A DNA stretch of 35,680 nt from Raillietiella orientalis (lineage: Eukaryota): assembly GCA_036172245.1 (NCBI GenBank), contig JAYWIR010000047.1:1302001-1337680 (forward strand), in the 5' to 3' direction. The notes under the pieces were generated by a model that saw only the letters and a list, made by a program, of their open reading frames with translations, was not told the origin of the DNA and made no database searches. Positions 1,945-33,416 of this stretch are shown here, piece by piece (the stretch's first letter is position 1; each line of letters opens with the position of its first letter). The position numbers and the translations under genes are program-made.

Positions 1945-2690
1945 CTTTGGCAAGTTGCCCCAGAAGAAAGCCAAATGCTTTTCTGGTGTGCCGAAAGTGC
2001 AGCAGTAACGAAAGCAGTCCTTCGCTGCCCGTGCAGCTCCGAAAGAGAAGGTGCGCAGGACCACATTAAGGCGTACACCAGAGTTTGGAACATAGTGAAT
2101 AGCATAGCATTCCGAACTCTGCCTGCAATCCGATCTTTTTGATACTCAGGATGCCCAAGCCAGCATCCTGGCGCGGCGCCCCCAAGTCTTTCAATCGGAT
2201 CCAAGACCTTGCAGAGCCCCACAAGGCTTTGAGTAGAAGGCGCTGCGCTTGAATCTTGACCGAATGAGCGGAAAACCAAAAACAGGGGGAGGAGGGGGGA
2301 GGCAACAAAGCTGATCCAGATGGAGACTCGTTCCAGCAAGACTTGCCACACAGGAACGGGTCAAGAGTACACTGTGCCTTTCAAAGGCAGTCCGACCTTG
2401 CTTCTGCAACGTAAAAGTTGCCTAACGGCACGCCAAGGTATTTGAAGTACTTTCCCGTGAAGATCTCCGTGGGATCCAGTCGGACTGTGCCTACCCATGT
2501 CGCTCCCACCGCGACGACCGTCGACTTCGACCTGTTCACGCTCACGCCCGCTCCACGGCGGATCAGCTCGAAGAAGTCCTCGAGCTAGACCGCCGGGTTG
2601 GACATGGGCAATAGGAGAAGCACGTTGTCCGCATAGGCTGCCACGGCGGGGTATCTGGACAGGAGCTCGGCAGGCTGGCCAGCATCAGTC
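1945..2690 (-). mobile_element. Degenerate L1/Tx1-like ORF2 fragment (RT catalytic region to thumb/GGLG region)
   Basis: Minus-strand translation across frameshifts: PAVAAYADNVLLLLPMSNPAV*LEDFFELIRRGAGVSVNRSKSTVVAVGATWVG...KYFKYLGVPLGNFY...LLERVSIW...ALWGSARSWIRLKDLGAPRQDAGLGILSI...KLWCTP*. Colinear with the copy at 12690-14597 (YADD, KYLGVPL, LYAPRRDGGLGLL, KLWSTSW). Confidence 0.9.
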
Positions 2691-3224
2691 TGTAACACAC
2701 GGAGACTTATGCCCTATATCCCAAATACAAACAGCAGTCCTCCCCCATCACAGTGTAGGTCCGCCAGCAGATGACATCCATTTAGATGGCTCTTCCACGT
2801 TTCCAATAGCAGAAGCTATTCAGGTGCTAACGTCCCTCTAAGTGCTATTTTTATCACTAACCCTCTCTCAATGTTGCTCCCTCAACAGCTGTGTATTCAA
2901 AGGCAGTTGAAACCTCTGTAAAATTGGACTTTACAAACATGTTGTAAAACTAAGCCTTATATAAGGTACAAATGTAAAAGGAATGTCGTAATAAACAAAC
3001 AAAATTCAGCACCAACTCGAAGAAGATGCTGATGAGCAGAAGGTTTAAACTGTCTCTCTGCCTTATTCCACGCTGCATTGCCATCCATGAACGTGAAGTT
3101 GCTGAAACAAAATGCTCACAATTTCCTGGTGTCAGCAGAAGCGCAAGTAGACCTGCAGGTTTGCCGGAAGACCAAGACTTTGCAAGTGCTCCAGAAGGAG
3201 TTCCTGGATGACGCAGTCGAACGT

Positions 3225-3720
3225 TTGGCCATTGGAATCCCCTGAGGCAATTCTAGGGACGCTTTAAAAGCCCTCTTCGTTGCTGACGCCCTTCGGCGTG
3301 CGGCCTCGTTAGCAGCCCTGTGCTGCCTTCGCCGGATCGTCGCCGCCTGGAGCAAGGCTAAGGGAGGACCACGCGACCAGGATGCCATCCATCCAGCCTC
3401 CCAATTCTTGAGGAAAGCGTCGCAATGGCCCCACCTGGATCCTGGAATACAGAAAGAGCTTGCCGGCATCCTGCGAAGGATGCAGCGGCCCCAGCAGCAA
3501 CAGTGATCCCTTCCCGTACCCTCCCACCTTTTCTTTTCTTTTTGTTTAGTTTTTTGTTTATCCCCCTTCCTTCTGCTGCGTGGTGGACCGTACCGGTCTG
3601 CGAACCGGTGACCCGGCAGGCTCTGTGTTTCTTCGTGCGTGGCTGGAGCACTGGTCCAGCCACAGCACGTCTTTGTTAAAGTTTGTTTTTGAAATAAACG
3701 CCCCGGCGAAACCCGGCTGA
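3225..3720 (+). mobile_element. 3' terminal fragment of L1/Tx1-like element (ORF2 C-terminus + 3' UTR)
   Basis: LAIGIP*GNSRDALKALFVADALRRAASLAALCCLRRIVAAWSKAK...QFLRKASQWPHL...KELAGILRRMQ aligns with the ORF2 end at about 14095-14377 (ALGIPDGGNPRGVYSLLFVRDALSPAAALAALCCIRGIVAAWSDAK...). Both copies continue tga-tcccttccc, a T-rich tract, AATAAA (3693-3698 here) and a ccgg hairpin. Confidence 0.9.
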
Positions 3721-3721
3721 A

Positions 3722-4660
3722 AATCGAAAGTTTTGTGCAGGTCGACTACGACTGCCAAGGTTTTCGGCGTTTCTTCTTGAGGCTTGTCCCTACGCCTGTG
3801 GTCGATAGCAGATATCGCTGCTTCTCGACCATCCAGCGCTACTGCAGTTGGAGCCATATCTGCGCGAAAAGGAGATTCGCATCCATGGACCGCCCGGGAA
3901 CAGCGTAGGTCTGCTCCGGACTTATCACAGACTCCGCGATCTTTTTACTCCCGCGACCCAAAGCTTCGACTACAGCTTGACGTTCGAATTCACTAATGTG
4001 ATGGAGCAGATTGTGAACAGTTGTTGAGGAACGCAACTCTTCGCCTTTAGGCAGGAGACGTACCTTCGCTGAGCGAAACAGGGGGGAACATCGCCCGTGT
4101 CTCGCATCTGCGACGAGAGTCACTGAGCCAAGGGGTTGGGCATCGTTGAGTGGTCCTGGAAGAACTCCGCGGGCGGGCCATCCTCGCCTGGCACCTTCCG
4201 CCTCTTGAGCCCCGCGATGGGGGAAGAGATTTACTGGGCTCGTGAAGGGCTCGTCGAGACGTCCGCATTCCTCCTCGTCAATAGCAGGAGCATCCCTCGG
4301 GAGAAGCAGTTCGGAGAGACTGTGTTCAGTGGGTGCCTCTGCGTACAACGAAAAGTAGTAGCGCCTGAGTGCTCATATGTCGGCCGAGACCGAGCATTCC
4401 TGGCCCGCGTCGTCCAGCAAACAAGACTGCCAGACCTGGCGCTCGACCCTTGCCTTCTAGTCTACCAGTCGTCGAACGTCCGCGTGCCTGGAGAAAGTTC
4501 GGGACAGCAGAAAAACTCTGCTGTTGGCCACTCCCTCTCCAAAGTCACGTGGAAGTAGGTGCGAGGGAACCGGCAGCACAACTCGTGAACCGATCTTTTC
4601 GGTACGTCCTAGTCCACGAGCTCCCCAGCGACGAAGTCTCGGAGGTGCTGGTGAAGATGC
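3722..4660 (-). mobile_element. Degenerate 5'-truncated L1/Tx1-like ORF2 fragment (linker to first RT motifs)
   Basis: Across frameshifts: LVD*DVPKRSVHELCC (vs VADWDRLKHRIHLFC in the intact ORF2), GLKRRKVPGEDGPPAEFFQDH, FRSAKVRLLPKGEEL, VISPEQTYAVPGRSMDAN (vs LISPVQTCAVPGRHMSDN), TLAVVVDLHKTFD (vs VLVFTDMEKAFD). Confidence 0.88.
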
Positions 4661-4662
4661 TC

Positions 4663-5850
4663 CGAGTCTCATAACGAATTCCAGACCGGGAGATAATTAT
4701 TGAGAATGAGATTAAGTCTGAGGTTCTTGTCGGAAAAAGTGGAGTCTCCAATTGCTTTCAGGGAGCAGTAGATGGAATATTTCTACTGGTGCTGGTCGAA
4801 ATTCTTTTGATCGAGCGGAACTTTCCATAGACTGAAATCTGAAGTTAGCTCCAGGAGGTTGAGTCCTAACAACTCGTTTCCTTTCGACCCTACGAACAAG
4901 GTAGTGATATCAGTTTTGTATAACCCCTTCTCTATAATTTCAGAAAGGCAATCCATTTAACGATGGACTCCGTTCCCAGTCTTGACGACCGGCCGAACCA
5001 TCCTGAGTTCAGATTTTTCTAATACGACCATCTCTTCGAAAGTAGGTTCCACTAACTGACCTTTTATCTCTTCATCTGAGAAGAGGGCAGCAACTACGCC
5101 CTTCATAGCAGATGGGCGCTTATCGTTTCCCTCCACCTCCACCAGAGTCTTTCCTCCCGTTCCAGCCTGAGTGACGCTCACCTGCGTTGCCTCAGTGACG
5201 AGTGCGACAGTTCTCCATGGCGTGGACACTCCCGCAACATGTACGTGTGCTGCTGCTCGCAATATCCAGCCTTCTTCCTCGGCTTTCCGCTACCACTAAC
5301 ATGCGAGAAGTCGGCTGACTCAAAAACGTAGCGTGCTACAAACGCACCTGCAGACCACCAAATCCGTGCCTCCTTCCCTGGGCGCGCGTACAAACCGTGA
5401 AACTCGTCGTTATTGTGTAGACCCCTTGCTTAGTTAGCACCTCCGATCCCGCACCAGAGACCATCTCCCCCACTAAACGACCCTCTTTCTCCCTCGTGGC
5501 AGCCTCAGTTCGTGCCACAGTTTCTCGGGAAACTCCGCATCCATCGCTGCATGCACTCTACCTGCATGAGCACTGCGCTTGGCTCTCCAAATATGGTCGT
5601 AGGTTCCTCTACCTTTCTTTCCAAGTGACCTACTCGGTCCAGCACCTCATGGTAGGTGACCGATGTTGGCACGCGCTTGGAAATCTGCAGCCTAACAGTG
5701 CTGCTTCTTTGCAGATAAATCCACTCTTGAAAGGTCTCGCACTGCAGAGCACGGCTCCCACCGAAGAGAAATGCTTTCAGGGATGGCATGCAGGGATCGC
5801 AAGCGCAGCGGTCCCTGGCCTGAGCAACAGCATGATGAGGCATCTTTGTG
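4663..5850 (-). pseudogene. Endogenous viral element: disrupted RdRp fragment of a toti-like dsRNA virus (Ghabrivirales-like)
   Basis: One minus-strand frame (5262 to about 4663) reads AGTGGKTLVEVEG...AMKGVVAALFSDEEIKGQL...EEMVVLEKSELRMVRPVVKTGNGVHR*MDCLSEIIEKGLYKTDITTLFVGSKGNE...WKVPLDQKNFDQHQ*KYSIYCSLKAIG...VWNSL*DS. It has motif F (KSE..RPVV) and motif A (PLDQxxFD, 4786-4827) of giardiavirus-like/arthropod toti-like RdRps, recognised from memory. It stops before motifs B/C. The upstream boundary is approximate. Confidence 0.82.
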
Positions 5851-8800
5851 CGCACAGCAAGGGCAGCTTCCTCTTCGCGTGCACCTTGGAAACAAGCAAA
5901 TTCCCTGATCACGGAATGAACGGCATGTTGCAAAAACCGGGATTCAGAAAGAGAATGTGCTGCCTTCTCCCCGTGCGGTCACGCGGATTCGAAGGGACGC
6001 CCGACGACTCGCCAGCTGGGCATCCCCGAACAGGGACGCGGACGCATGCCAACGGCGTCCAAGAAAGGACAAAGCCATCTCTGGCTTTATCCGACGATGC
6101 TGTGGGCAAAGAAACTTGCCGCACACGAAGATGCCAAGAGCCACGCTCTGAAGCGAGTTGAAATTAATGGAGCTTTGGGCACGCCCTTCGAAGGTCGCTG
6201 CGGTTTGCAAAACCTCAGCAAGCTAAACTCTTCCAGCGGGTCAACCCGTGCTACTCGGAAGAAGAGCAAAAGACCTCCAGACGAAGGTCGATTGGTACGG
6301 TAAGGCGCGCAGCGAGCGTTTCCACGTTCTCCCTGCAGAGTCAGCCAACCTTGTTCAGCGTGAGTACCATGGCTTCAAGAAGACACGCCAAAGTCACCGA
6401 TGCAGTTGGAACGCAACCCTTTCTTGTCAAGGAAAAGCAGCCAGCAGAGTTGCTTTCTCCGTATGCATCGAGTGGTAGGAGGGACGCATTCCAAGACAGT
6501 GAGTGAAGCTTCAACGAGGTTGCCTGTAGCAACCACACGTGTGAGCAGCCTCTGCGAAGAAAACGAAAAAAAGTTATTTGGAAGAGCAGTGCTGGATCAA
6601 ATCAAAACGGAAGCCAGGAGGCGAGTCAAACGCGAGAGACTTCTTCCTGGTTACCGAATGGCTGTTGCTGCCCTTCCGCAAATTGCGTGCTGCAGATACC
6701 ACGTGGAGCATGATAACTCCTTCACTTAGCGAAACCGTGGACAGACTCGAATCCCTGGAAGAATCCGTTTATTACCACACTGTCATGGAACACACCATGC
6801 TCTTCAAAGAGCCAAACTTCGAACACGTACCGAGCAAGCATTCGTTATCCGATTTTGGAATGTGTGAGAACATGAACAGCGGAGCTGTCATCTATTCCTT
6901 TCAGTATTGTGGAAAATTCCTGAGGCCATGGTTATGCGCGACTCGAATTCATTAATATAAGACTATGTTTATTTCCAAGGTCCCGGTTAAGGTGTTGTTT
7001 CTTCACTGTCGTGAAAAGACACCTTCGTGGTGAGAAAAGCAATGTTTTTCCTCATGAAGTCTACTTGAACGGTCTTTCCCTCTAAAATTTTTGTGCACAG
7101 TTGCATTTGAGTAGTTTCCTGAGCGACGAATATGAGGTAGAAATGTTGCCCATCTAGAGGAACGAAAGACACATGAAGCATTTCCAAAGAGAACATCAGA
7201 CAAGAGAAGGAGTTGTCCACGCAACTGAGAGGGTCGAATGCCCACATTGAGCCAATCGGGTAAACACACAGGAACCACGCGTTTCAAGACACCGAGCGGA
7301 TGCTGCAGGGATCAGGGATCACCACGCCTAACGAATCCCCTGCCCGGAAAGTCTGCACTCGCGGGACGTCTCCACACGCACGCGCGCTGCGAAAGTAATG
7401 CGCATGCGTGCGCGATGACATCGGGTGCTAAGCAGAAGCGAGGAGTGGAAGGCAGGTGCGGACACCCACGGGGCGCATACTAACATGCCAGCCACACGAT
7501 GCATTTTCGTGACTCTCCATGAAACCCCACATCTGCAATGCCAACGGGTCGCATCGAGGTGAAAAAAGCTTTCCAGGATTGTCGCGCCATCGGGAAGGAT
7601 GGGTTGCAAGCAACGTCCACCTACGCCCGGGGGCACTCACTGCTGCACTTCCCCTCCTCGTTCTTCCGCACCGCAACACGCACTGAATCTGATGGGGGAC
7701 GAGTGGCAGCAACTCTCAGAGAGTCAAGAGAAGTCCCTACAGATTCAGCGCTGCTCTCTGCGGAAAGTCGGTGTGCTTCTGAGGAGCGCTCGAACGCTGC
7801 TGGTCAGCCCGAACTTCACGACGGCGTCGACATCTGTCTGCACTCCGAAATCAAGGGAACTCAGCGTGAGCCTTCCGCCATTCTCTCTGCAATTCTCGTC
7901 GTGGCGCCGGTCTCATCAGACAGGTGCGTCTTCTTACCCATTCAAGTTCACCATCATTCTCAAATAGGAAAGTTGTTGCTGGCGGCTCACCGCTGTCGTG
8001 TAGTCCAATGTGATAGGTAAACTGCCAGAGTACGGGGCCGTCTTTGGGAAAGGGTTGTTGCGTGGAGGCACATAAGATGCAACAAGCGCATTGGGACTCT
8101 TGTAGGCAGCAATGCGGATCGGCTACCTCGATCTGTCACGACTTGAAATGAATTTACCTTGCGACGGTGGTCATGCGCGGGTTGTCCTTTTTTCGGGGAC
8201 TCGACTCGGCTCCTTCCATCACGCTTCCCTCTTGGAGTCGGAAACTATTCGGTGCAGGGGATGCAGCCGAACTCTTGCACCCATCAGAGAGCGCACCGAA
8301 GCGCCTCGTCTCTTTCGGCTTTGCGAGATCACCCTGGTTCCCGTGCTCGACCTAGAAGCGACGATTGGCAGTCTCCAGGTTCGGAGGACCAATAGCATCG
8401 AGGAAGCAAAGGAGGAAGCACGCAACTCGGTCACGAAGGGGCTGCAGCACTTCATGCTGCCAAATCGTGCAGGGCCTTTCCAACGGGATGGAAATGCAGA
8501 GCATCACCGATCGACGTCGTCGTTGGCAACTCTGCAGTTAGACCCATTTCCCGTGAAATAGGCTTCCGCAGCTGTTGGCGCTCAACACGCAGAGAGCAAT
8601 CACCTGGAGAATGTTATTTCCGACGAAGGACTGATACTCTTTCCCGAAGACCGTCGTGCTGTCCGTTTTTCCGTAGACAAAGCTGGAGGAGTTCCCGACG
8701 TTGAATGTTTTGAGATCTTCTGCAATGGGAAGACAAACTTGGAAAGGGCAGTCGCACGCACCAGGGTCCCTTACTGCAAAACGGAGTTGGACAGCGGTGG

Positions 8801-8959
8801 CTCAGCACCACCACACTCGAGTACAATCCAGCATCCAGGGCAAGGGACAAGGGTCGTGGCATATTTCCCAGAGAGGCTTCCAGCAGGTAGAAGCCCTGCA
8901 TTCTGGGAGTGTGAGAAAGGCGGAAGGGCTGCACTCACCCTCTCGTAACGAAGAGGGAA

Positions 8960-9650
8960 GGTTTCTTCGACAAGAGTAAGTTTAGCCGCCCTAGAGAAGC
9001 AAGTCATTTCCGGGTCACTCCTAATAAGCAAGCAAGCTCCCAGTATCCTCACCAGGAAACTGCTAGCAAAGCGGAGAAGAACGAGGCAGATGTCCACATG
9101 TGGAAGCCGATGGAAAGGTTCGGATGCCGACTCCACACACTGCAGCGCTGGCAAAGAGAACAGGCGGTCCCTTCCTGCCTGTGGACTTCCTGGAGGCGTT
9201 TCGTGAGCGTTTATATGGAGGAGAGGTCGCATCCTCACGATGATCTTTCTGGATTTTCGCAGGTGTTCAGGCAGTTTTGGTAGTGAATGTCACCTCACCT
9301 CTATTCCTGATATCGGTGAGAGTCGTCTTTGTCGACGAAATGATGGATCACCAGGCAGAAACTTTTTCTCTCTCCGCAAGCAGCAATCACTCATGGAAAG
9401 GATCACACATGAGGGTCCTGGCACTTGTTTTTGCTCCTGGCAGCAGCTTCGCTTTCCTCTTGCTCGTTTGTGTGGGACTCCCTCTGAAAGCAGGGGATGG
9501 ATCGCGGAACGCAGCGTCCGCATTCTCTCACTTCCGGGAACCGGGCAAGGCAAGGAAGGGGGGTATGTCGCAGCGAGATGTCGCTCGTGGGGTGGCACGG
9601 GCAGTGGGAAGCGCCTCGAACCTGCAGCCAGCTGAAGGGACACTCCTTAA
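8960..9650 (+). mobile_element. Highly decayed APE-endonuclease relic of a LINE ORF2
   Basis: Fragments across frameshifts in APE order: SLAALEKQ...KQAPSIL/QET, RWKGS, GRILTMIFLDF/GVQAVLVVNVTSP (vs GRVIGVRLSWSSNVHLFLVNVYGP in the intact ORF2). No clean GDFN or SDH motif remains. Confidence 0.4.
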
Positions 9651-10849
9651 GGAATCGCGCGCTCGGAGGAGCTCGCCATTCTTTGGCTAGCTGGGATGAG
9701 ATGGGGCTATGGGGAAGGCTATCTCGGGGAAGCAGTTCTCACGTGCGGAAGAGAAGGAGCAGTCCATCCAGCAGCTGCCCTGCGTAATGCTGACGATAGA
9801 GGGCATGTGGAAGCAACAACCCCTTTCATGTTCCGCGCCAAGGACACCTCTGGACTCCCGTCAATCCACGCGCTAGCGGGTTACGAGCCGGGTGCCTCAT
9901 GCACTGCAGCGTCTTCAGTTTCTTCTTCTCCACGGTGACGAAGCGTCCGCTGGCGAATTGCAAACGGAAATTACCCCTTGATCTCGATAGCATGGTCGCG
10001 GGCATCTCAGCGCGGGAGTAAGGTCGCCTGAAGCAGCCGCTCTTCCTCGAGGTCCCCGGAAGCACGTCCCGAGCGGTTGCCTCGAGGAACCGGACGCGCT
10101 ATCACGCGCATTTTTCGTCCGCTCCCCGTGCGGGGTCCAGCATCCTTTGCCTACCCTCTGGCAGCAGTTTCGTGCTTGTTCGGAAGAAGGATCCCCCTGC
10201 AGGCAGGACGTGGTACCACAGCGACTTCTGGTCTTTCCCCCGGATGCAGACCAGTGCATCCCGTGGAGAAAGCTCGAGCAGGGCTCAGGCGGCTGCAGGA
10301 GCCGTGCATGTGTTCGTACTTTGAGAGTCGCTCACTACCTTTCTGGCGTTTTCGAGTCTTCGCGGCTCAGAGGCGGGGACTCGCCTCGTTTGCGCTTCTG
10401 GCTGTGGTGCTGCGAATCGTGCGGACCTGCTCTCTGACGCTCTGCGCTCAGAAGGACCTTTTTCTTCCCATTCTTATGTGCGTTGGTGCGTGGAGTGTGC
10501 TTGTGATTTCCTGGAGTGGATTCCAAGAGGATAGGTCGTGGACAACCAGGGAAGAGAAGCGGGGACTCGTTCTGCCCTCTCTACGGAGCTTGCGGACGAC
10601 ACGTCCTGCTTAGAATTGCTCTCTCAGAATGAGAGGCTGCAGATCCACGTAGCTGCTCCGGATCTTCCGTAGTGAGCCGAGTCAGGAAGCCGGACCTGCA
10701 AGTGAGAGGTGTGCACCCATTCGTGCATGGGAAGTTATTCAAGACTCATGCGGTTCTCATGGCGCGATCCCGCGAAAGCCCCTCGTGACTAAGAGCTTGT
10801 AAAGCTGGAGGTGTTCTGTGTGGGTCAGATGGTTGAGCTGACCTGCAAA

Positions 10850-11310
10850 GATGGTCTCTCTCAATGCATGCTGGAAACCACATCAATTGGTCACCGTCAA
10901 TGGACGCTATCCCGTATCGGTTACAACCGTTTCCTGGTCATCCAGATCGCAAGCATTTCGGTTGAAGTAACCAAGGACAAGGTTCTTCGCGCTCTGTCAG
11001 AATTCTCCACGGTTCGCGCAATGTGGGCGAAGTCCAGTGCTTCCTTTGCCTACGAGGGATCGCCAAGAGAAATGGCGGCCTACCAAGTCGCCGTCTGTGA
11101 CGAGAGTGGGCCGCTCACGGTCCATAGGTGGGAGGAGAGTGCATCGACCTGTGACCAACGCTGTGGCTCTCAGGTGAGCTTGAAGTGTGTGTGCGAGGCG
11201 GAAAGACGAAGCACCCCAGAAGAAGGCATCTTGAAACCACATGCTTCGGGTGCGGAGAAATGGGCGTATCCAGGTGGTTTGTGTCAGAGGAAACAAGAGC
11301 TCTCCCTCCT
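10850..11310 (+). mobile_element. Decayed LINE ORF1 (RRM-like segment + degenerate zinc knuckles)
   Basis: FLVIQIASISVEVTKDKVLRALSEFSTV (Tx1-type ORF1 RRM pattern), then TCDQRCGSQ, CVRGGKTKHPRRRH and TCFGCGEMG/RIQVVC, i.e. three damaged CCHC knuckles across frameshifts. Confidence 0.65.
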
Positions 11311-12134
11311 CCTCAGAGCGGAGGGATAGGAGAGCGAGTGCAAGAAACGTCAGGGTCAATCGAGGGCCCACAAGCGTAAATGGAGTATTCTTGAAGCCAC
11401 TGACACCCTTACAGTTTCCCTCGGAACATGGTGCAGGTGCAAGAGAGGGCAGCAGCATTGGGGACGGGGGCTGGCAAACCAGAGAATGCACGCAATGGTT
11501 CTTCTTCGCCTACGACTCTCCATTAGCCATCCTCTGGGTGAGGAGCTGCAGGAACCGAAGGAGTTGAGTAGTCTGGATTCCACACTTCTTGCCACAGCGT
11601 TGTCTGCCCTCGGGACACGCGACGACAATTGCTTACCGGCGGGGTGGTAGCTGACCTGCGCGATCTCTTGAGAGACCAAACTCCTTGGTGACTGGAAGAG
11701 GCGCGAGTTGACGAATGCCGTCACTCCACGTAATGAGGCAATGGGACTACGTCGGTCGTGTCCACTGTCGAGTATTCTCCCCATCGAACTGGTAGTCCTC
11801 TCACCCAATGCTGGAACGGCTTTTCCACTGAAATGGAAACGCGACGTGCTACTGTCTCGGCGCTGGAGGTTCTAGTTCAATGAGCGCTGGAACCTCGTCT
11901 CCGGTAGAGCTGCATCCTCGGACTACGCCATCGGGGGGAAGGGGCGGAGTCAATCCCGACCCTACAGAAGATCCCCTGTCCTCTGGCTGAAACCCTCACC
12001 TCCACCACAAGGCATCACCTTTCTGACTTTCCGAGACTCCGTATGCGCCAGCTGACGTCAATGGGTCATCTTGCCCGCGGCGCCTTCCTTGCCTCATCCA
12101 CCAAACCAGCGACCTGTTACGAACTGCCAAGTGA

Positions 12135-12690: not shown

Positions 12691-14597
12691 CCTACTTTGA
12701 GTTGGTGCTGAGAGCGTACAGGGCGACTTTGGCCCCCTTGCCGAGCTCGTGCCCCGGCACGCCCGCCGTAGCAGCGTACGCCGACGATCTTCTGCTGATG
12801 TTACCCATGTCCACCCCGGCAGCCGCAGTCGAGGAATTCTTCGATCTGCTAAGCCGCGGGACGGGACTGCGGGTAAACAAGGCAAAGTCGTCTGTGGTGG
12901 AGGTTGGTGCGACGTGGGTTGGACGGCCTGACTGGATCCGCTCGGGGATCCCCGCGTCCAGGTACCTGAAGTACCTTGGTGTGCCGTTGGGAGACTTCTG
13001 CCCGTCAGAAGCTGGTCAGGTCGTCTCCAAAAAGTAGAGTCGGCGATCGGCCTGTTCCTGGAGGGCAAGTTCCTCTTGCCGGAACGGGCCGCGGTATGGG
13101 ACGCGTTCGCGGCTCCCATCCTTCGCCCCCAGCTTTTTGTATGCCCCGTTCCCCCCCAGTTGAAGAAGAGGACCAAGGACCTACTCTGCATCGCCCTCTG
13201 GGGCAAGGGGAGGCCTAGAGTGCCTCTGAAGGACTTATACGCTCCGCGTCGGGACGGCGGTCTTGGCCTCCTGACTCTGGAGCGCTTGGAAATCCAGGTG
13301 CGATGGCGCACGATGGCCATCGCAGCGAAGTTGTGGAGCACCTCTTGGTGCGTTCCGGCCCGCCTTCTTGCCAGCCGTGTCTCCAGGACGCAAGGACTAG
13401 CGTCTTATCTTCTGTGCTCCGGTCGGAAGATACGAAGATGCGGCCTGCTCCTTGGACGCATGTCCACCTTGGCTAAGGAGAACGGCTGGATGGTTTGTAG
13501 CCCCGCCAACTCCTCCGCATGGCTGGAGGAGACTTCTGGCACGTGGGCGAAGATAAATGAAAGAAACCACGAGACGTGGAACTGCCTGTGAGTCGGCTTC
13601 TACGCCCGCCGCACTCTTCGTGAAATTCTTCAATTTCCAGCGAGTTGCACGTGGACGGAAGGGACACCCCTTGCTACGGCGATGCCCTTCCTCCAAAGGG
13701 CGCTTCAGAACAGCCGGAAGCTGAGGTGGCAAGTCTGCTGCCGTATCGCAGGCAGAGAGAAGATGATGAGCGGCTGGACCATGGGAGAGCTGACAGACGC
13801 TACGACCCCTAGTGTCCAGCCGCGTGGATTAAGAAGATGGGGCGAGCTGCTCGGCATCCGGTCGGATGACCTGAAGTGGTCCCCGGTTCTAATTGGATCC
13901 AGGATTCTTCTGCTGAAGTGTCAAGAGTCGGCACTTCTGTGGCTGCATTGGGGTCTACCCTGCAACGCGCGCCGCTTCCACTGGACGCGGGGAAGAGTAA
14001 ATCCTGCGTGTGCCAGGTGTGGGGAGTGGGAGTCCTTCCCCCACCTCCTAGTTGACTGCCCTGCCCTCCGGATTCTTTGGGATCGTCTTGGAACGGCCCT
14101 CGGGATACCGGATGGTGGCAACCCCAGAGGCGTTTACAGTCTTCTCTTCGTGCGGGACGCCCTCAGTCCAGCCGCAGCCCTGGCAGCACTTTGCTGCATT
14201 CGTGGTATCGTGGCGGCCTGGAGTGATGCCAAAGATGAAGATTGCAACGTGACGGACGTCATCCAGTATGCTGTTCGCTTCCTGCAGAGAGCTACAGGAT
14301 GGCCCCAACTGGGAAGAATGAAGAAGGACCTCGAGGGCATCCTGCAAAGGATGGTCCCTCCCCGAAGTGGAACGTGATCCCTTCCCGGCCCTCCAAACTC
14401 CTTTTGTTTTTTGTTTTTCTGAATTTTATTTTATTTTATTTTTCTCCCCATCCCCTTCCACTACCGAGGAGAGCCACACCGGGCTGCGTCCCGGCGTCCC
14501 GGCAGGTCCGGTATTGCGTGACCGTTAGTGGGGCCTTGTACCACGTTCTGTAATGACCGAGAAAGTTTTTTAATAAAGGTCCCGGAGTACCCGGGTG
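12690..14597 (+). mobile_element. 5'-truncated L1/Tx1-like retrotransposon: RT core to zf-RVT, 3' UTR
   Basis: AAYADDLLL, LRVNKAKS, KYLGVPLG, a frameshift near 13010, LYAPRRDGGLGLLTL, an in-frame TGA at 13589-13591, and the zinc finger CARCGEWESFPHLLVDC. Stop at 14377, T-rich UTR, AATAAA at 14572-14577, hairpin cccgg-agtac-ccggg at 14581-14595. Confidence 0.95.
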
Positions 14598-15281: not shown

Positions 15282-15447
15282 CAGGAGTCTGCGCGAACGC
15301 AGCCTCCCAACCTAAAAATTATGCTTCCGAGTAACCCGCATTTGGGATTATCGCGGAGGTCAGCCCCGCCGGCGTGCAATGGCCAGGCCTCGCTCCGGAG
15401 GAATTGCCATCGTGAACACAATTTAGACCTCGAAGCCAGGTAAGTAT
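15282..15447 (-). ncRNA. U1: U1 spliceosomal snRNA, full length (gene or retrocopy)
   Basis: Minus strand: ATACTTACCTGG 5' end; SL1 AATTGT-GTTCACGATG-GCAATT; SL2 loop ATTGCAC (U1A site); SL3; Sm site ATAATTTTTAG; SL4 GGGAGGCTGCG-TTCG-CGCAGACTCCT. About 166 nt, Drosophila-like CCTCCGGAG. Confidence 0.95.
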
Positions 15448-16925: not shown

Positions 16926-19900
16926 CTGGAACCCTTCGCGGAATCGCGGTGGCGTGCCGCCTGTCCTGCTCGCAAGCGAACCCCGTGCTCGCAGCTTTTG
17001 GTTCCCGCTCGTTGCCCTTCCCTCTCCCCCTCTCATCCCAGTCCGCTGCCCAGCCTGGTCCACCACCACCACCCGTCCTCCGACACTTCGCTCCCGTGAA
17101 CCTGCATTCCCGTAGGCGCCTTTCCCATTTCGTCGCCGTCGCCCGTCGGTTCGGAGCGTCCTCTCCGCCTAATGGCGAACCTCAGCTAAACACGCAAACG
17201 TCGGGGATGCACCATCAGACCGCTGCCTGGATCCAGGATCCCTCGCAACAGCACCCAACCGATCACGACTTGGATACGCTGCACCCGCCACCTTCACCGG
17301 CGGCGGAGCCGCCATCCCGTCCGTCGCTCGAGGTCACTCGTGCCGCCGGCGACGGACGGACGCACCCGTGCATCCACGCCATTTTGCACAGCAACCCCAC
17401 GACCAGCATATTCAGGGCATTGAGCCACTGCGGGAGACCCCGCGCAGCGGCGCCAGCCGTGACACAGACGCCACTCTCCTTCCAGGATCGTCTTCCCTAG
17501 CTCCTCCGCACCTCCTCCAGGAAAGCAGCCCGCCTTGCGAGTGGCGCACCTAACCCCATCCGCTTACCACCCGCGGCCGCAACCCGCCTCGTCCTTCGCC
17601 CTCGCGCGCCTTGTAGCACTCCGGTTGCATTCCCTTTTCGCGTCTTTCCCTTTTGCGTGGTGTTAGTGCGCAGCATTTATCGCTTGCTGCTCCCAATGAC
17701 ATTTCCAAAGTCCCCTTTTCCAGAGTTCGTTTCTCGAATCTTACGGTTTCCTTGTGCATTTCCATTTGCGTTTTCGCATTTCCTTCGCTCTTTGTGTGGA
17801 ATTCGTTTGGTTTTCCTGCCGATGATTTGGTTTCTTTCCTTGCCATCTGGTGCCTCTTCTTCAAATTATCTGTTTGGAGTTCTGCGTGTTCGCTTGTTAT
17901 CGTTCCCTTGCTTCTGTAAAGCTCTCTCCCCTTCGTTCGTTGCAACTATTTGTCGTCATTCTTGTTGCATTTGCGCTTTTTCGCGAGCTTTTCCAGTGCT
18001 CCTTGAACTGTTGACCCGGTTTGTTCCCGTTCCTGCTAGATGCTGGTGCCTGCTGCACTTTATGCGTGTTTTCCTGTAATTGTTTCCCATTGGATTGCGC
18101 GTGCAGAATGTTTCAATTTGCCTTCCTGCCTGCTACGTTCCTGTCTTCCTTGCAATGGTCCTTGATACGGTTGCCCTGTCTTCCTCCTTCCCATCTCGGG
18201 TTGCAGTGCTTTTTTGTTTCCCTCATCAATTGCCTTCGAACGCCATTGAATTGTATGCGCGGTTTTGCTGGTCGCGAAACGTACCGAGGTCGGGATATGC
18301 GTTCCGTAGATGCTCCGTCTTGCGGGAAGAACTCCTCCTTGCTTGTGCGCATCCCGAAATCGTCGACTGGTGTTCGCTCGTTCCGTCTTTGATGCAGGTC
18401 TTCCGTGTGCTACCTGCTCTTCCGGTTTCTTCCGCCGGAGTTCGTCGGTCCGAGCTGAGTTGCGCGCGTCGTCGTGGTGGATGCGCCGTTTCCGTCGTGA
18501 ATGGCGCGAAGGTGATCCGCCTCTGCTCGCTCCGTCGATCCCGCATCTTCGCTTGCGGCCTTCCCGATGATGTTTTTCTTCCGGAGCGCTTTCCTCCTCC
18601 CCTGGTGTTGGCATCGTCCGAGCCCGCTCCGGGTGGTCCCGCAACCCTCCCCTCCTCCCAGATGACCCCTACCTCCTCCGGCATCGCCATCTCTGGGGAT
18701 CGGGGAACTGCTCTACGGCTCGGGGAAGCTTCCGCGCAGCCACCGGACCATCGCTACAGGCAACCAACCACCCACGGCTCGCTCGCCCCCGAGCGGGCGG
18801 GTCGCCGTGGTTCCGGCTCGCTTCCAACGCAGCTTCGGTTGGTTGCCTGGTTCCCCCGTGCCGCACGGGATGCTGTCGGAGGTCCTCGGGTCCGGGGGGA
18901 CTGCTGAGGACCTCCGTCGGGTGCGGCAGGACTCCACTTTCGGGTTTCTCCCTCCTCCCCCATCCCCGAGGCGAAGTGGCATCCGCTCCCGGAGGATCTT
19001 CGCGACGACGATCCGCATCCCACGGGCCCACGAGGGCTCCTCCTACGGGATGGACTGCGGCTGCGAGAAGCGCGCGCGCAACGAGAGAACGCACCCGGGA
19101 TGCGGGAATGGGTGGAGGCGGCGGGGTGCGCGTCCGCGGCCTTAGGGTCCCCCCTCAAAGGGGACGCCCCCGTGGGGAGGAGGGGGGCGGAACCGCGCGG
19201 GCGGGAGGCGAAAAGTTGGGGCGCGATGGGACGAGGGGAGTTCGCCAGTGGACCCGCGTGACTTCGGAAGTCGGACGTCGACCGCGTTGGCGTCGCGGAT
19301 TCGGATCTGCGCCGCCTCCATCGCGTCGGAATGGTCGGCGCCGAGAGCGGGTGGCGCGTCGTGGGCTTCGTGCCCCCTCCTCCCACCCACGGGGAGCCCC
19401 TCGGGGCTTTCAGAGCAGCGACGGGTTCGGATTGCCCCCGTCGGCCTGCAGGCTAACCGCAAGTGCAGCCTCCTGGAATCCCCCCAGGACCCACTCCGGG
19501 TTCTCGGGGTTCCCCCTGCAGTCGTGCAAATCGAGCTGCCAAACCGTGGCGATCGCTGAAACGAGTGCGACGCCAACAGCGGCGTCAGGACCGCCGCCGG
19601 CTTCGACGTCGAGGGCACCGGACGCGTCGCTCATCCCACCACCTCGACCTCGCGTATTCCGAGTTCTCGCGCACATCCTCGGCACCGTCGCTGCCTCGTT
19701 GCCCGAGGAAACGGGAGGACACCTGCGGGAACGCCCTCCCGTCGCGCCTGCGGACGGGAGGGTGAGCCTGTCGGGAGTCCCGGCTCCTTTGGAAACCGAT
19801 CCCTTCTCGCCGATAGAAATGCGCGAGGCGAGGGACGCTTCTGTCCGCGAGGCCGACCCGCAGTGGGAGCCTTCTAGGGCAGCGCGGTGTTCTCCGGACC

Positions 19901-21639
19901 GGGCTTTCCCGCGACTCGGCCTGGCGCGGGTGTGCCCCCCTCTATGGTTGCCCGAGGAAGAGCTCCCGCCCGTGAGATTTTCTCTCTGGTCGGTCTGCCG
20001 AAACCGTTCGGATTTCCATTTCCTTACATAGACGTCGCTGGCGCCTGTGCGAGCTCCTTGCCGTTCGCACACTCCCGCCACGCGTCTCCGGGTGGAAACC
20101 CATTCGAACGCCGTGGGCCTATTCTGTATCCGTGGTTCTCACTGGGCGGGGAGGGTGCAGCTTCCTCCCGCACGAAGGGCATGACCGCTGCGGAGGGCTG
20201 GGCATCCGCAGCTGTTTGAGGACGCTAGCACGGAAGGCTGCAAGGAAGCAGCCGCGGGGGGGGGGGGAAGGGGGGCAAAGTAAAGGTGGGTGTGCGACCG
20301 GTTGCTGGGATCGTCGGAACGCAAGCTTCGCTTCTCGGCCGGCCGCGGTTCCCGCGCATTCGCCGTCCCGACTCGACTGCTTGCGACTCCGGGGCAGGCG
20401 GACGGCGGGAATGCGTGTCGCCCGGCCACGCAAAGTGGAGTCTCCGCCCAGAGGTGGTGGCGTCCTCCTGCAGCACGAGAGGCGTGGCGTGGCGTCGCGT
20501 GCTTCTCCCTGCCATGACAGGCGCGCACGGGGCTGGGACGAGTGCTGTGCTCACGCTCCTCGTGCCGCAAAGCGCTTCGGGCAACGCGCGCTGACCCCCG
20601 TGGGTCATCCACGCCCGCCACGCTGCTTGCGCCCCCGTAGGAGCGGCGAAGGCAGCAGCAGGAATGGAGTCCCGTCGAGAACGGCTGCTGGACCTGACCG
20701 TGGTGCCACAGCTACAGGGCGGGCTATGACTCGGGGAGGGGAGGACGCTACCACCACCGGGGGCCTCGCCTGCCGCGTGGCCCCTGCCCGCCTCCCTTCT
20801 TCCTTTCGCCCGTGGAGACACAGCGCCCGGCCACGCGGTACAACGGCTCCGCCCAACCTCTTTCCCCGCTCCTCAGGCACGCCCTCGAGAGCTGGGTCTG
20901 GCGAGACGGGCGTTGAGTCCACCCAACCCAGTCTGGAGCACTCTTCCCCTTTTCCCGCGCGGTGCCGGAGGAGGAACGGCTGTGCGCGTTTCCGTGGCGA
21001 GGATGGGCCTTCCGGCTTGCACGCGCAGCTGCGGTCCCGGCGCCACCCCGAGTCGAGTGCGAGCTGCGGGGCCTCTCTTGCCGGCAGCGGCCGCCCAGCC
21101 CACGAACGTGCGTGCGCCCACGGATCGGGTGGCTTTACGGCTTCCATCCGCCCCCCAACTCCAACCTCCCCTCGCGCAGCCAACAAAGTGCGCGCGCGGG
21201 CTGTGCCCTCTTCAGATGCGGGGGCACTGCAAGAAGCGGGAGTTGGCACGAGGAGTCACCGAGCGCGGCCGGTCCGACGCGCGCAGGATGCGCGCCCCGT
21301 AGTGGTGATGCAGACGCCGTGACGGCAACGGCGCGGATGGCGGACGATCGATCTCCGTTCTCCCCTTTCCTGATACGACACATCGATGCAGGTTCGAGTT
21401 GGGATGCAGGTTCTAATATTTCTTAGGACAAAATCACAGGTTTCATCATTTACGATCTCCGATGTTTCACTTGAAGTCAGTTTTTCCATCAATGTCTTTT
21501 TCTAGATCGCCTCGATCATCTTTGTGAAGCACAGATAACACATATGCTACCACAGTAATAAATGCGATTGCCGACATAATATGATTACCAAGAAAGCACT
21601 GTAAATCCATTAGCAGCTATAATTGAATGTCAACGTACG

Positions 21640-21719
21640 CCTATGACCTGGCTTCGAGGTGAATTATGAGCACGAATCCGGAAAGTATTTTTGGGAAGCA
21701 GCACGTGTAGTGCTTTGCT
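21640..21719 (+). pseudogene. U1: Internally deleted U1 snRNA relic
   Basis: acctggcttcgaggt (21646-21660) is identical over 15 nt to the U1 copy at 15447. Then aattatgagcacgaa (SL1 stem and loop), a jump at cgga to a Sm-like atttttg (21687-21693), and a terminal hairpin agcagcac-gtgta-gtgctttgct. SL2/SL3 are absent. Confidence 0.7.
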
Positions 21720-21834
21720 AGCAATTGCTGTCTACATATTCTACGTGTTCTACATATTCTACGTCCGGTTTTCGCTTTTGTGTTTCATCGAAAGCGTCAA
21801 CGCTACGCATCGACTACCCGGACGAACGGCTATC

Positions 21835-22230
21835 CACGTCCACGCCCATGGATTTGGACAAAGCAGGCCCCTCTGAAGAAAGAACCATGGTGGGGTCAAG
21901 GGATGATCAGGCGCAATCGCTGTCCTACACGACCGAGCGACGTATACGCAGTGCGCAGCTGCCTCCAGCGATTTTCCGGGAGTGCTCCCCGCACGAAAAC
22001 GAAGCCTCATCAAATCCTCGGAATACGAGGTTTTAGACGACGAAGACGGACCCATCCTCACCATGGTGCCGGAGGTTAAACCGTGAGTTCTCAAAACAGG
22101 TCCCCTTAAACTTGCCGACACCGACGATTTTCACGCGGCAGTCGTATGACAAATCGGAAAGAGATGTCTCTTTCCAGGCATTCGAGAGGCCTCCATTTTC
22201 TTGTGGAGAAGGGATTCTCACTCTACGTCT
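21835..22230 (+). mobile_element. Decayed ORF1 N-terminal relic
   Basis: STPMD (ATG 21848) vs STPME (ATG 31631). PILTMVPEVKP*VLKTGPLKL (22051-22113) aligns without gaps to PMVKLSPASKPITFKTGLVRF (32087-32149; 7/21 identical). FLVEKGFSL (22197-22223) vs ALIEKGINI. Confidence 0.65.
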
Positions 22231-25200
22231 AATCCGCTCAATCCTCCTAGGCGGAAATGACCGCCCTCCTCTGCAAGACCCAACGGACAAAAAATCGAAC
22301 ACGAACCACCCGCTGCAGCCTCTCGAAAATGCGCCTCCTTCCTGCTTTGCGCCCTTCGGCGTGTTCTTCGCACTCGGGATCCGGTGTGCCTGAAAATCCC
22401 GAAGGTTCTCCAAAAGAAATACACAGGCTCATTACCAACATGAATGCACGAGTTCATAAAGGAATCAACGGATCGAACCACATCAATTACGATGAACTGT
22501 AAATACACATGCCTATTACGTACATTCATATGCATTGTGAAAGATTAAAGGTACGGGTAAAAGCTACACATCGCCAAGATGCTAAAAAAATTGACACACG
22601 CGGCTATCAAAAAAGCTAATGTGCACATTCATTTAGGAATGAACACACGATTACATAATGATTAGTTTGCATTGATAGACACGGCGAAGATTAGCCGAAA
22701 AGGGAAGCGTGCACGCTTGCTGTGCTTGCAACGTGCGTAAACGTGCACGGGGATTCATACTGTGGGATTCCGAAAAATGGTGACCACCAAACAGCGTGGG
22801 AGACGTTGAAATGGAAAAGCGAACAAACGACCACGAGAAAAGAGGCGGGAAGCGTGCGTTGCCATCGTTTGCGACACGCGGTGAGCGGAAGTTCCTCGGG
22901 AAGTGACGACACCCGTTGTCGGGACTTTCATTGGTCGCGCATGAACAGCCACGTGTTCGGCCTGCGGCTATTTCCACACTCGTTTGGAGCACAGCTCGTT
23001 CTTTCGTGCAGGAACGCATCCACGTATTCCCGTTTCCTTGTTTTTTCTCATCTCATCTCAACATGTATACCCGAAAATAGCGATAGTAACGCATGTTTCA
23101 TGAATGTGAAATGAATCAATCAAACATGGCATCGTAAGCTGGAGTGTCCACCCATCTTCTTTCAAAGTGGCCTCAAAGCGGTTGCCCGAGCGAGTCCACT
23201 AAGCGTCCCAGATTGCGAGATTTGCATGGAAACGCTAACGAGTTGCTGAAAAGCAGCGACACGTCGTCAACCAAGTGTGTTGGCCGAAGAGCAGTCAACT
23301 CGCTCGTGGGGTGCTCACCTTCCGGGGTTTGCACTCGAACGGTGCAAAGTTTTCTGGAGAACCTTGAACGAGGCACTCGACGTGAAAGATGGGTTTCGAA
23401 GCCGTCTCGCCATGGCGCAGGAAAGCTTTTTCCCCTGCTGCCATCAGCGAACCAAGACCAAGGTTCGCGACGGACCAAGTTCTCTCCGCGCACCGTCCGA
23501 CGAACCGCTGCACCTTCGATCCTCGGTCTTGTACCGCCTGCAATCCGTCCAACTTGTCACTTTCGTGCGGATCGGAATGCTTCGGCCATCCCCCCCCCCC
23601 GCTGCAAGATGGTCATCTCCGCGTGCAACACGGGAAGCGCTGTTTCGTTTCTTCTTTCACCCGTCGCCGCGCAAAACCTGGCGGGCCAGCGGAAAGGCTC
23701 CGAACGGAAAAAGGCGGAAACGGCGAAATGTCTTCGGCGTGTTCGCTGTACACGAGGAGACAGGTTGCTTTCCTGGAACCATAGCAACACGCCATCCTCC
23801 TTTTCTCATATACGGAATTGCGCACACGCCCGAGCGCTCGAGTTCATCAAATCGGATGGTCGATGGAGATGCCTTGGGGATGCGGAAGTTGGAAGACGGC
23901 CATCAACCGCAATCTTGCAGCGCTCGTTCGCATCGATGGAGGTGCGTCGTTCGTACCAGCTCTTCGGGTTTCCTCCTGCTCGTGACCCGAAGTGTGGACT
24001 TGCTAGCACGAATGCGGATAGCGCCACCTGGTGAAACACGCGGTCACTTGTCCCGCGGTGCAACAGCTTCCTGTTTCCCATCTCGGGAAACGACTGATGC
24101 GCACGGGCGGCGATCTCGGAGAAACCGGCGGCCTCCGCGCCCTCTCTGCCGAAGGAAATGTCGTGGCGAGCGGCGTTGGCTCAAGACGGTGCCGACACGC
24201 TCCTGCCGCATCGAACCTCCTCCTCCCGAAAGAGAGATGCTGCGGGGTGGGAACGCTGCTGCTGCTTCGTCGCTCGGCGACCCTTCTGAAAGGGCAGCCA
24301 ATCACGAGCGCTGCGCACTCGTCCGCGCGGATTTCGTTGGGAAGTCGCTTTCAGCAGGTCAGAGATCCTCGCCTGTCAGCTGCCGCTCTGTCGCGCGTCG
24401 GATAAGAGCGCAACCGGAGATTGCACTTTTACCGGAAACGCTTGCATCCTTTGCGGCCTCTTGGACGTGCACGGCTGCGTGGTTATCCCCACGCTCTCGA
24501 TATCCAGGTAAGGGCAGGGCGCACGTTTTCGATTCGCTCGCATCTCCCTCATCGGCCGCCGTCTTTCAGGTTTTCTTCGTTTGCGGCTGCCTGCTTGCCG
24601 GGCTGCGCCGCGGCGCAAGTGAGGCCCAAGAAGCGCCATTCTTACTCCACCGGTCGGTGGAGTAGGAAGATGGGCACAAGGATCCCACGTGACTCTTTTA
24701 GGCCACGGTGCCACGCAGAGGGCAGCGACATGGATTGGACGCGACCGACACGGTGGAGAGCCTTTCGGGCGTTGCCCCTTGGGCCGGGAGGCGGAGACCC
24801 TTTGGGCGTCTCCTCTAGCAGCCGCGACACCGGGAGCGCCGACGTGGCTCGCGTGGAACACGACAGCGTGCCTTTGGGCGTGCCAGCATTGCACTTGCCG
24901 CGGGAACGCACGTATGCAACGGCGTGTTCCACGTGCTCTTGGACCGGCATGCAATGTCGCGAGGGACGGGGTGGAGGGGGGAGAGACACGGCTGCGCCAC
25001 CAGCACGCGAAGCTGACGTTTTCTCCTTACTCCCGGAGACCTTCTTCCGGCTGGCTGACCACGCACCCGAAGTTCGGGAGGACGCTGCCACCCTCTGTCC
25101 CTTGTCTCGAACCTCTGTCGGACAACGCTGCAGATGCCGAACTGCCCTCTTCCGAGGCCGAGCAGGCATTGCAGCAGCAGGGGGCGGTGGGAACCTTCTT

Positions 25201-27764: not shown

Positions 27765-28828
27765 GATGGTGCGTCGCGGGAATCGCGTAGGGGATCCGGG
27801 ACCATTCTCGCAGGTTCCTGGGAAGGATCTCGAAGGTCCGGCGCTGCCAAGGTCCGGCTGGTGAGCGGAGCATCTGGTCACCGAACTCTGCAGCGCTTCC
27901 TGCAGGCTGCAGCTGCACAGCCGAAGCCTCCGTGCCGTCATGGGGAGGCTTGCAAGCCACGCGCATCTACTTCGGGACGTGTCGGTCCTTCATTCGAGCC
28001 CGCCAGGTCGCCACCCCCGATGAAGCTCCAGGACTGCGAAGATCCGGTGCGAATCAACTGGCCGCTGCGGAAATGCAGGCGACCCACCGGCCGACAAAGC
28101 GAAAGGGTGCGACTGCGTCGCTACGGAGCAGAATTACGAGCTCACTCCGCCTACGCCGCGGCTCCACGAGAAGCGCAACTTGAATGTCGCAACCACATTA
28201 ACGATGAAAGAAGAAAATGATGTTAATCCACCACAATGGCATAATGTACCAACGTCAAGATGGAAACAGCATGCGGAATCGTAATTGAGACCAATCACAA
28301 CATCCAGAATCGAAAAGTTTCTTTCGAACCACGAAAAAGGCGTAACATTTGGCGGCCGACGATTCGAAAACCGTTCGAATTCCCGTTCGGCTGGATCAAA
28401 TAATTTCAGCCTCTGGCGGGGTTCCACCGAATGCAACAGGAGATCTGGGGAGGAAACCTCTGAATTGGCAACCCTGCTCTACCGATTGTCGAACCTCCCC
28501 CGTCTCCAAGGGTAACAGAACAAACTCGAGGAAACAATAAAAGAAAAGAAAATGGAAAGCATTCGATCGATGTCGTAAGGCGAGCGACACACCCTATCGC
28601 GGATGCACTACACCACCCGAAAAACGGTCGCTTTCCTTCCCGGAAGAACAGGCTGGATCGCCGTTGCCCAGAACTGGCCGCCCTGCAACCCGCAATGCTC
28701 TCTCCCACACGTCGTCTTGGAGAAGAAGCGCCAGCAAGAGGGTGAGAACAGGATCGAGGTGCTGCTTGAGACCGCGACCTCCTGAAACGACGGTAGGTGG
28801 ATCATCAACACGGAAACAACAACAAAAT

Positions 28829-28849
28829 ACACACACACACACACACACA
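28829..28849 (+). repeat. (AC)10 microsatellite
   Basis: Perfect AC run. Confidence 0.95.
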
Positions 28850-30781: not shown

Positions 30782-31260
30782 AAAAAAAAAAAAAAAAAAA
30801 CAAGTACTCCTCTTACAGCAATTCGTTACCTTGGGCGAAAAATCACGAAGAGCATCCAAAGAAAATTCAAAAAACGGCCAAATTCAAAACACGAAACTAG
30901 CAGCATCTAGTGGAAGAAAATCAAACCACGAAATAAAAAAAATTTCAAAATAAACGAAGAAAAAAAACACATCACACGAAAAATAGACGAAACACACAAA
31001 AAAGAACAAAGAAAAAAAAAAAATCACTACACACAACAAAAATGGTAAAATAATAGAAAAAAAAATAGTTCAAGAATCAAAACAAAGAGGGAAGCATGAA
31101 GCAAATTCACAAAACCGCGAAAAATAACAAACTAACACAAAGTCAAAAACAAACTCAAATAACAAGAAAGACAAAAAAAACCAAAACAAAAAGCAAAATA
31201 AAAAAACCACTAAACAATACTCTCAAAAACACCAATTCAACAAAACCTACCACAAATAAA
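30782..31260 (+). repeat. A19 tract followed by A/C-rich low-complexity sequence
   Basis: A run at 30782-30800, then strongly A-skewed sequence up to about 65 nt before U4. Confidence 0.85.
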
Positions 31261-31324
31261 ACGCATACGTAACTACGCACAAATACTGCCCGCGGAATCC
31301 GGACCATCAAAAACTTTAATCGCC

Positions 31325-33400: not shown

Positions 33401-33416
33401 GACTCCCCCCCCTTTC

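Follow-up and report, generated by a model that had tools for sequence, protein, structure and literature searches.

A fragment of a toti-like viral RNA-dependent RNA polymerase (RdRp) gene and a 5′-truncated long interspersed nuclear element (LINE) lie end to end, in the same sense, in the genome of Raillietiella orientalis. The arrangement occupies the minus strand of a 35,680-nucleotide (nt) stretch of contig JAYWIR010000047.1 (assembly GCA_036172245.1, forward-strand positions 1,302,001 to 1,337,680), referred to below as the window and numbered from its first letter. Its best single reading, put forward tentatively because a single locus is no proof, is a one-step co-integration of both parts, by template switch or by RNA joining.

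The entry into animal genomes of RNA viruses that lack a reverse transcriptase (RT) is only partly understood; LINE-1 is implicated in mammals and long terminal repeat (LTR) elements in insects. If true, the reading proposed here would add a third route, in which a non-LTR enzyme captures viral RNA by switching templates, and would mean that a LINE can give rise to viral fossils in an invertebrate, a host in which these are otherwise linked to LTR elements. It would also provide a signature at the sequence level for genome-wide searches. The locus offers the geometry without the certificate, and its worth is that of a lead for a whole-genome survey rather than that of proof.

The viral RdRp fragment

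The viral origin of the fragment is established by a search of 1.84 billion representative proteins, in which the query was the minus-strand read-through of 5289–4672 with X at two in-frame stops. This query matches 87 proteins at E ≤ 1e-3, 57 at E ≤ 1e-10, and five at E ≤ 1e-30; the top match, P0004, is reached at E 7.0e-52 with 49% identity. Many of the matched proteins are about 780–800 amino acids (aa) long and align at their residues ~205–355. Among 15 of the 87 that were scanned with Pfam, 13 harbor RdRP_4 (PF02123) just downstream of the aligned part, while the remaining two have either a sub-threshold RdRP_1 only or no domain at all. Ten of the top matches were looked up: three are annotated in a moth genome as host proteins and are probably endogenous copies themselves, and four of the other seven reside on contigs of ~5.0–7.2 kb, a size that we take to agree with toti-like double-stranded RNA (dsRNA) viruses. 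The label “toti-like” rests on the Pfam family and the contig size, with no named virus behind it. Two of the annotated moth proteins have unusual layouts, P0004 (1180 aa) being a head-to-tail repeat of RdRp sequence and P0008 a THAP domain joined to RdRp sequence; both have the look of endogenous copies.

An RdRp profile built from 26 matches of 740–860 aa and run over the six frames of the window identifies a single place, at profile positions 201–365 of 786 (162.9 bits, iE 2.6e-51), and the five other rows that it returns all have negative scores. When the window is tiled as 2832 pieces of 100 aa in six frames, eight tiles match, all of them inside profile positions 200–366, and the best tile outside the fragment over the whole 35.7 kb has an iE of 0.94. 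Similarly, tblastn of all 87 matched proteins yields nothing better than E 0.007 outside 4600–5232, which amounts to chance for 87 queries. Alignments of P0059 to 13949–14110 (E 0.007 with 87 queries) and of P0004 to 6115–5642 (E 0.53) were judged to be chance. The N-terminal part of the RdRp was not found upstream of 5172 in other frames, either with the profile or with the tiles. A PDB sequence search with the read-through gives only a chance match (E 0.45), and Pfam recognizes no domain in the window pieces, whether scanned singly or as an X-read-through, since in the relatives its model covers only sequence downstream of the retained part. The significance of the viral similarity, which the preliminary description of this DNA had left to be checked, is confirmed by the database matches and the profile, and with a best single match of 7e-52 an entirely non-viral origin is ruled out.

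The fragment retains a K-S-E...R-P-V stretch and a D-Q-K-N-F-D / D-x4-D motif (PLDQKNFDQHQ). In the relatives, SGWRWT and GDD motifs follow ~60 and ~100 residues beyond the latter, and neither has a counterpart anywhere in the 35.7 kb by profile, tiles, or tblastn. The palm motif letters A, B, and C are used below as our labels for D-x4-D, SGWRWT, and GDD, respectively. Three in-frame stops (TAA at 4957–4959, TAG at 4783–4785, and TGA at 4669–4671) interrupt the 170 codons, with zero frameshifts; the TGA occupies a conserved W column of the profile, the alignment to which terminates at VWNSLXDS. This agrees with the preliminary description, which placed the end of viral-like sequence at VWNSL*DS, about 4663, and whose quoted peptide strings are present exactly in the minus-strand frame of 5289–4231. 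To judge from its sequence, the piece is a short fragment from the interior of the gene, no longer coding and sharply bounded at either end, and not a polymerase. Its endogenous status follows from the same contig, which bears three LINE copies as well as U1 and U4 small nuclear RNA (snRNA) genes, and from the three in-frame stops. The G+C content is 0.43 in the fragment versus 0.58 below it, with the maximum-likelihood change point at 4665 (2-lnL support 4630–4699).

The truncated LINE

LINE copy 1, on the same strand as the RdRp fragment, is by its protein similarities a decayed, 5′-truncated L1/Tx1-like second open reading frame (ORF2). Its open frame 4372–3842 has one relative among longer proteins, P0003 (619 aa, E 7.2e-21, 41% identity), in which RVT_1 spans residues 125–396 and along which tblastn aligns four pieces of the copy (Table 1). 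With P0003 as the query, 85 proteins are found at E ≤ 1e-10 including P0003 itself, all others at ≤32% identity, and many of them share an Exo_endo_phos + RVT_1 + zf-RVT layout, for which we assume the clade name L1/Tx1-like. The named relatives come from ticks and a spider, and also from fish, a frog, and plants, all at no more than about 30% identity. A metagenome scan with P0003 returned seven loci, all distant or short, and direct Pfam scans of the decayed pieces of copy 1 detected no domain.

The N-terminus of P0003 is cut, making this protein uninformative on the upstream reach of the LINE. In P0093, the endonuclease terminates at residue 133 and the RT begins at 420, and residues 248–473 align to 4549–3872 (E 2.9e-6). 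Since the match starts at residue 248, between endonuclease and RT, LINE copy 1 is 5′-truncated in the linker. Above 4549 on the minus strand, no LINE or endonuclease match was obtained with the 85 RT proteins, nor with a profile for ORF2 built on 48 long RT proteins, the latter being judged too insensitive. The co-directional, 5′-truncated ORF2 that had been described previously is thereby recovered, with minus-strand tblastn matches running from 4549/4420 to 2018 and a start in the linker.

Decay of LINE copy 1 is extensive, with seven stops in 567 codons, at least four frame changes, and two insertions; at least two local frameshifts fall around 4260–4080. One insertion, an oppositely oriented 3′ fragment from the same LINE family, interrupts the RT motif ...VVVDLHKTFD / QTFDCVIQELLL..., while the other is A+T-rich and has no similarity to the rest of the window in a self-comparison. 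The nested fragment shares 78% mean column identity with LINE copy 2, and both end in AATAAA-N3-CCCGG-N4-CCCGG without poly(A), a terminal motif that occurs in the whole window only at 3693–3715 and 14572–14594, both on the plus strand. A target-site duplication (TSD) of 13–14 nt brackets the nested fragment (3215–3227 and 3722–3735, with two mismatches and one indel). A nested truncated copy with a TSD implies that this LINE family entered the site through ordinary target-primed reverse transcription. The homology of copy 1 itself ceases at 2018 (P0003 residue 533 of 619), ~1.2 kb short of the family 3′ terminus as defined by copy 2 and the nested fragment, such that both the C-terminal zinc-binding domain and the terminus are absent. 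Below the copy, near 1935, the G+C content falls from 0.53 to 0.33.

The junction

A segment of 113 nt (4550–4662) separates the last viral residue from the first defensible LINE residue. The minus frame of 5289–4231 runs through it and reads ...LPVWNSL(TGA)DS EHLHQHLRDFVAGELVD(TAG)DVPKRSVHELCC..., which the preliminary description took for a spacer-free continuation into sequence homologous to the LINE ORF2 linker. In that frame, ...RDFVAGELVD*DVPKRSVHELCCRFPRTYF... aligns gap-free to the linker of P0093 (...KDFYWGE...PTSYF...) with a score of 43, the highest of 3546 test windows over a background of 40–41 and reached by 3 of 2000 shuffles. P0095, which has the same layout and served as the second comparator, yields a score of 26, reached by 327 of 2000 shuffles. 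A competing alignment in the LINE’s own frame from 4549 (RDFGEGVANSRVFLLSRT...) scores 44, with 0 of 2000 shuffles reaching it and a background of up to 45; it has the correct spacing to the RT, and upstream of 4549 that frame shows no similarity. The claim of spacer-free linker homology is thus marginal against one comparator, fails against the other, and faces a rival frame.

A DNA-level duplication of the linker motif, by which both alignments could hold, is not seen in a comparison of 4672–4550 with 4552–4400, where 387 of 500 shuffles reach the score. A linker-only profile of 14 L1/Tx1-like proteins misses even the linker of the intact LINE copy 3 and is therefore uninformative on 4550–4662, and when the ORF2 of copy 3 is used as the comparator, the RT alone aligns. 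The segment may be LINE linker, with its composition in favor of this assignment.

Table 1. Coordinates of the viral fragment, the junction segment, and the LINE-derived features in the window
Feature	Position	Strand	Details
Toti-like viral RdRp fragment (endogenous viral element)	4663..5172	minus	profile positions 201–365 of 786
Junction segment between last viral and first defensible LINE residue	4550..4662	minus	113 nt; G+C 0.58
LINE copy 1, ORF2 endonuclease–RT linker into RT, up to ...VVVDLHKTFDF	3720..4549	minus	decayed, stops
Nested 5′-truncated 3′ fragment in copy 1, same LINE family, opposite orientation	3228..3719	plus	492 nt
LINE copy 1, RT continued	3004..3227	minus	P0003 residues 231–305
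A+T-rich insert in RT of copy 1	2711..3003		293 nt
LINE copy 1, C-terminal RT part including YADN box region	2018..2710	minus	P0003 residues 302–533
LINE copy 1 versus P0003 (tblastn)	4420–3767	minus	residues 1–214, E 2.2e-29
LINE copy 1 versus P0003 (tblastn)	3227–3084	minus	residues 231–278, E 5.0e-15 (shared)
LINE copy 1 versus P0003 (tblastn)	3084–3004	minus	residues 279–305, E 5.0e-15 (shared)
LINE copy 1 versus P0003 (tblastn)	2710–2018	minus	residues 302–533, E 3.7e-42
LINE copy 2	12582 to about 14597	plus	weak zf-RVT match

Origin of the arrangement

It is conceivable, if still doubtful, that an L1/Tx1-like non-LTR element switched templates in mid-copy, captured plus-strand RNA of a toti-like dsRNA virus, and so left a virus–LINE fusion in the germ line. 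In such a scheme, the L1/Tx1-like LINE would start target-primed reverse transcription on its own RNA, and the enzyme would depart from this template inside the endonuclease–RT linker of ORF2. Synthesis would proceed on the plus (coding) strand of the virus, either upon a template switch or on RNAs joined beforehand, with ~510 nt of the central part of the RdRp gene being copied before a stop. The product would read 5′-(RdRp positions 201–365)-(LINE ORF2 from the linker onward)-3′. Later decay would account for the stops, the frameshifts, the two nested insertions, and the loss or displacement of the last ~1.2 kb of the LINE.

Several features suggest that both parts may have arrived in one event, joined by a template switch. 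A plus-strand RNA as the second template requires the viral coding sense and the LINE sense to be on one strand, as they are, and the three elements of the geometry (a foreign part 5′ of the LINE, its sense orientation, and a 5′-truncated LINE) are all present. One event would explain both sharp ends of the short internal viral fragment, and there is no further RdRp sequence in the 35.7 kb. The composition turns at 4665, where viral homology ends, to the G+C level of the LINE, and the same LINE family has been active at this very place by target-primed insertion, as the nested copy and its TSD attest. The absence of LINE sequence upstream of the viral piece implies that a complete LINE was not the site into which the virus inserted. 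The stop densities of the two parts (3 in 170 versus 7 in 567 codons) are compatible with equal age. The geometry from which template switching had been proposed is as previously described, and the switch itself is plausible but not demonstrated.

Other observations weigh against a single event. The 3′ terminus of the LINE is absent from the minus strand in a search of the whole window for the terminal motif, and no TSD enclosing both parts was found, which is not a true negative because the real end of the LINE is outside the window or deleted; between the outer flanks 5150–5500 and 1600–2060, the longest common word is 8 nt, a length that 143 of 200 shuffles also attain. No firm assignment exists for the 113-nt junction segment. 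Full-length U6 chimeras are joined at an RNA 3′ end, whereas the viral RNA is joined here at an internal point (profile position ~366 of 786), although the available text on mammalian L1 chimeras also reports truncated partners (10.1101/2025.02.02.635956). The region is dense in insertions, with two in the 2.5 kb of LINE copy 1, such that nesting is common here, and a same-sense orientation arises by chance in one case out of two. Finally, the viral part has zero frameshifts or insertions versus at least four frame changes and two insertions in the LINE; at the LINE’s rate, the chance of 510 nt escaping all of these is estimated at roughly 0.2, which hints weakly at unequal ages.

The frequent nesting, exemplified by LINE copy 1 with its TSD-flanked LINE fragment and its 293-nt insert, raises the alternative of two events, in which a 5′-truncated LINE copy entered an older, longer toti-like fossil between RdRp motifs A and B and came to share its orientation by that one-in-two chance. 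The rest of the fossil would then be found beyond the true 3′ end of the LINE, outside the window or deleted. The preliminary description had pointed to motifs B and C beyond the LINE as the mark of such an insertion. None occurs in the 35.7 kb, yet their absence is not counted against two events because the LINE 3′ end is not in the window, making this an unfair test. Less favorable to two events is the lack of RdRp similarity in the 1.9 kb below the LINE (1–1935), as is the separate cause needed for the sharp viral end at 5172. Moreover, the fossil must predate a heavily decayed LINE, yet the viral part is the less damaged of the two, although this evidence is weak. On balance, a history of two events is rather unlikely.

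The remaining alternative dispenses with the LINE enzyme altogether. Viral complementary DNA (cDNA) from another reverse transcriptase, or acquired by break capture, would have been placed beside a LINE remnant, or else a deletion or rearrangement would have brought the two together. The locus is indeed rearranged, with the LINE losing its last ~1.2 kb at the abrupt composition break near 1935, and neither the junction segment nor the upstream flank 5173–12000 has matches; in mosquitoes, viral fossils are tied to LTR elements and not to LINEs, as far as the available text extends (10.1101/127498). However, a Pfam scan of 170 open frames of at least 85 aa at 5421–35678 revealed no LTR-retrotransposon domain, and no 5′ part of a LINE precedes the virus. 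Unrelated arrivals would also leave unexplained the coincidence of the viral end with the switch in composition and the LINE-like G+C content that follows, and they are the least likely of the histories considered. Co-integration in one step thus remains the preferred reading.

Surroundings of the locus

The upstream flank 5173–12000 gave no firm match with Pfam, the Atlas, or a word-based protein search. Just upstream of the RdRp fragment, on the other strand, is a 246-codon open frame (5421–6158, plus), for which the nearest Atlas clusters, at a score of 0.87, carry NDC10_II, DUF3435, or Phage_integrase and provide a lead only. These labels hint at a putative origin from a tyrosine-recombinase transposon; the frame itself has no Pfam match and no match in a word-based search restricted to longer proteins. 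The Atlas has no match for the frame 5508–5978 on the minus strand. Across 5421–35678, Pfam scans of 81 open frames produced two weak matches only, both in LINE copy 2, and scans of 89 further frames produced the domains of LINE copy 3 only.

Below the LINE, the A+T-rich block 1–1935 has no match, including no RdRp similarity by profile or tiles. It contains a palindrome of 51 nt (1655–1705, 94% self-complementary), which is all that emerged from a comparison of 1–1935, 2711–3003, and 5176–7500 with the rest of the window. On the plus strand, 18571–24662 reaches a G+C content of 0.70 and has open frames of 486, 448, and 471 codons without Pfam matches.

LINE copy 3, an apparently complete element of the same enzyme kind, directly follows a full-length U4 snRNA copy on the plus strand (31325–35678 for the two together; Rfam 88.1 bits, model 1–138 of 138). 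Its first open reading frame (ORF1), with a CCHC knuckle, is open over 31424–33397, and its ORF2, encoding endonuclease and RT, is open for 761 codons to the end of the window. The N-terminal part of ORF1 includes imperfect 27/48-nt tandem repeats (31671–31910) that are GCG/GCC-rich and alanine-rich in frame, and a skew of A over T on the plus strand (AT skew 0.31–0.45) extends over 28000–31300, leading to the U4 copy. The U4–LINE arrangement could be a 5′ chimera, a read-through use of the snRNA promoter, or a site-specific insertion; site-specific insertion exists for some Tx1-clade elements. LINE copy 2 is followed, ~0.7 kb past its 3′ terminus, by a full-length U1 snRNA copy on the other strand (15282–15447, minus, 122.2 bits), and no LINE was found downstream of this U1 copy on its own strand.

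Comparison with known systems

In mammals, many host RNAs, including U6, U3, tRNA, and mRNA, occur as the 5′ partner in L1 chimeras that are certified by TSDs, according to the available text (10.1101/2025.02.02.635956). The likeness to the present locus is that a copy of a foreign RNA stands in sense orientation 5′ of a 5′-truncated LINE, and the origin proposed there is a template switch in target-primed reverse transcription or prior RNA ligation. However, the partners in mammals are host RNAs, and the words “virus” and “viral” are absent from the text of that study. The mammalian chimeras are certified by TSDs, a poly(A) tail, and an endonuclease motif, none of which is visible here, and their U6 junctions are at the 3′ end of that RNA (10.1101/2025.02.02.635956), in contrast to the junction inside the viral RNA at the present locus. 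The LINE described here also belongs to an L1/Tx1-like family without a poly(A) tail, unlike mammalian LINE-1.

Bornavirus-like elements are a LINE-1-mediated case in mammals, and LINE-1-mediated integration has also been claimed for SARS-CoV-2. In the mammalian LINE-1 viral cases, a viral mRNA serves in trans as the sole template and leaves poly(A) and a TSD, with no virus–LINE fusion. The feature in common with the reading proposed here is that a LINE reverse transcriptase is held responsible for the integration of non-retroviral RNA virus sequences, as stated in the available portions of both sources (PMC8166107, PMC8554740). Among the papers listed by full-text searches of an open-access library, none reports that a non-retroviral virus and a LINE have fused naturally, which is no proof of the absence of such a report in print.

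Among arthropods, twelve toti-like endogenous elements have been reported from four tick genomes (PMC10675110). Like the fragment described here, they are pieces of toti-like virus genes fixed in host DNA; their matches are to “hypothetical protein 2” of a single toti-like virus, and the available part of that report describes no transposon junction (PMC10675110). Viral fossils of Aedes are tied to LTR elements, and in the insect virus/LTR-retrotransposon cDNAs, the enzyme of the retroelement switches between its own RNA and viral RNA to give a chimeric DNA that can be fixed, as far as the available text describes (10.1101/127498). The partner in insects is a Ty3/gypsy or Pao-Bel LTR element in that account (10.1101/127498), whereas the neighbor here is a non-LTR element. 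If real, the locus would represent a variant of a known process and not a new kind of system.

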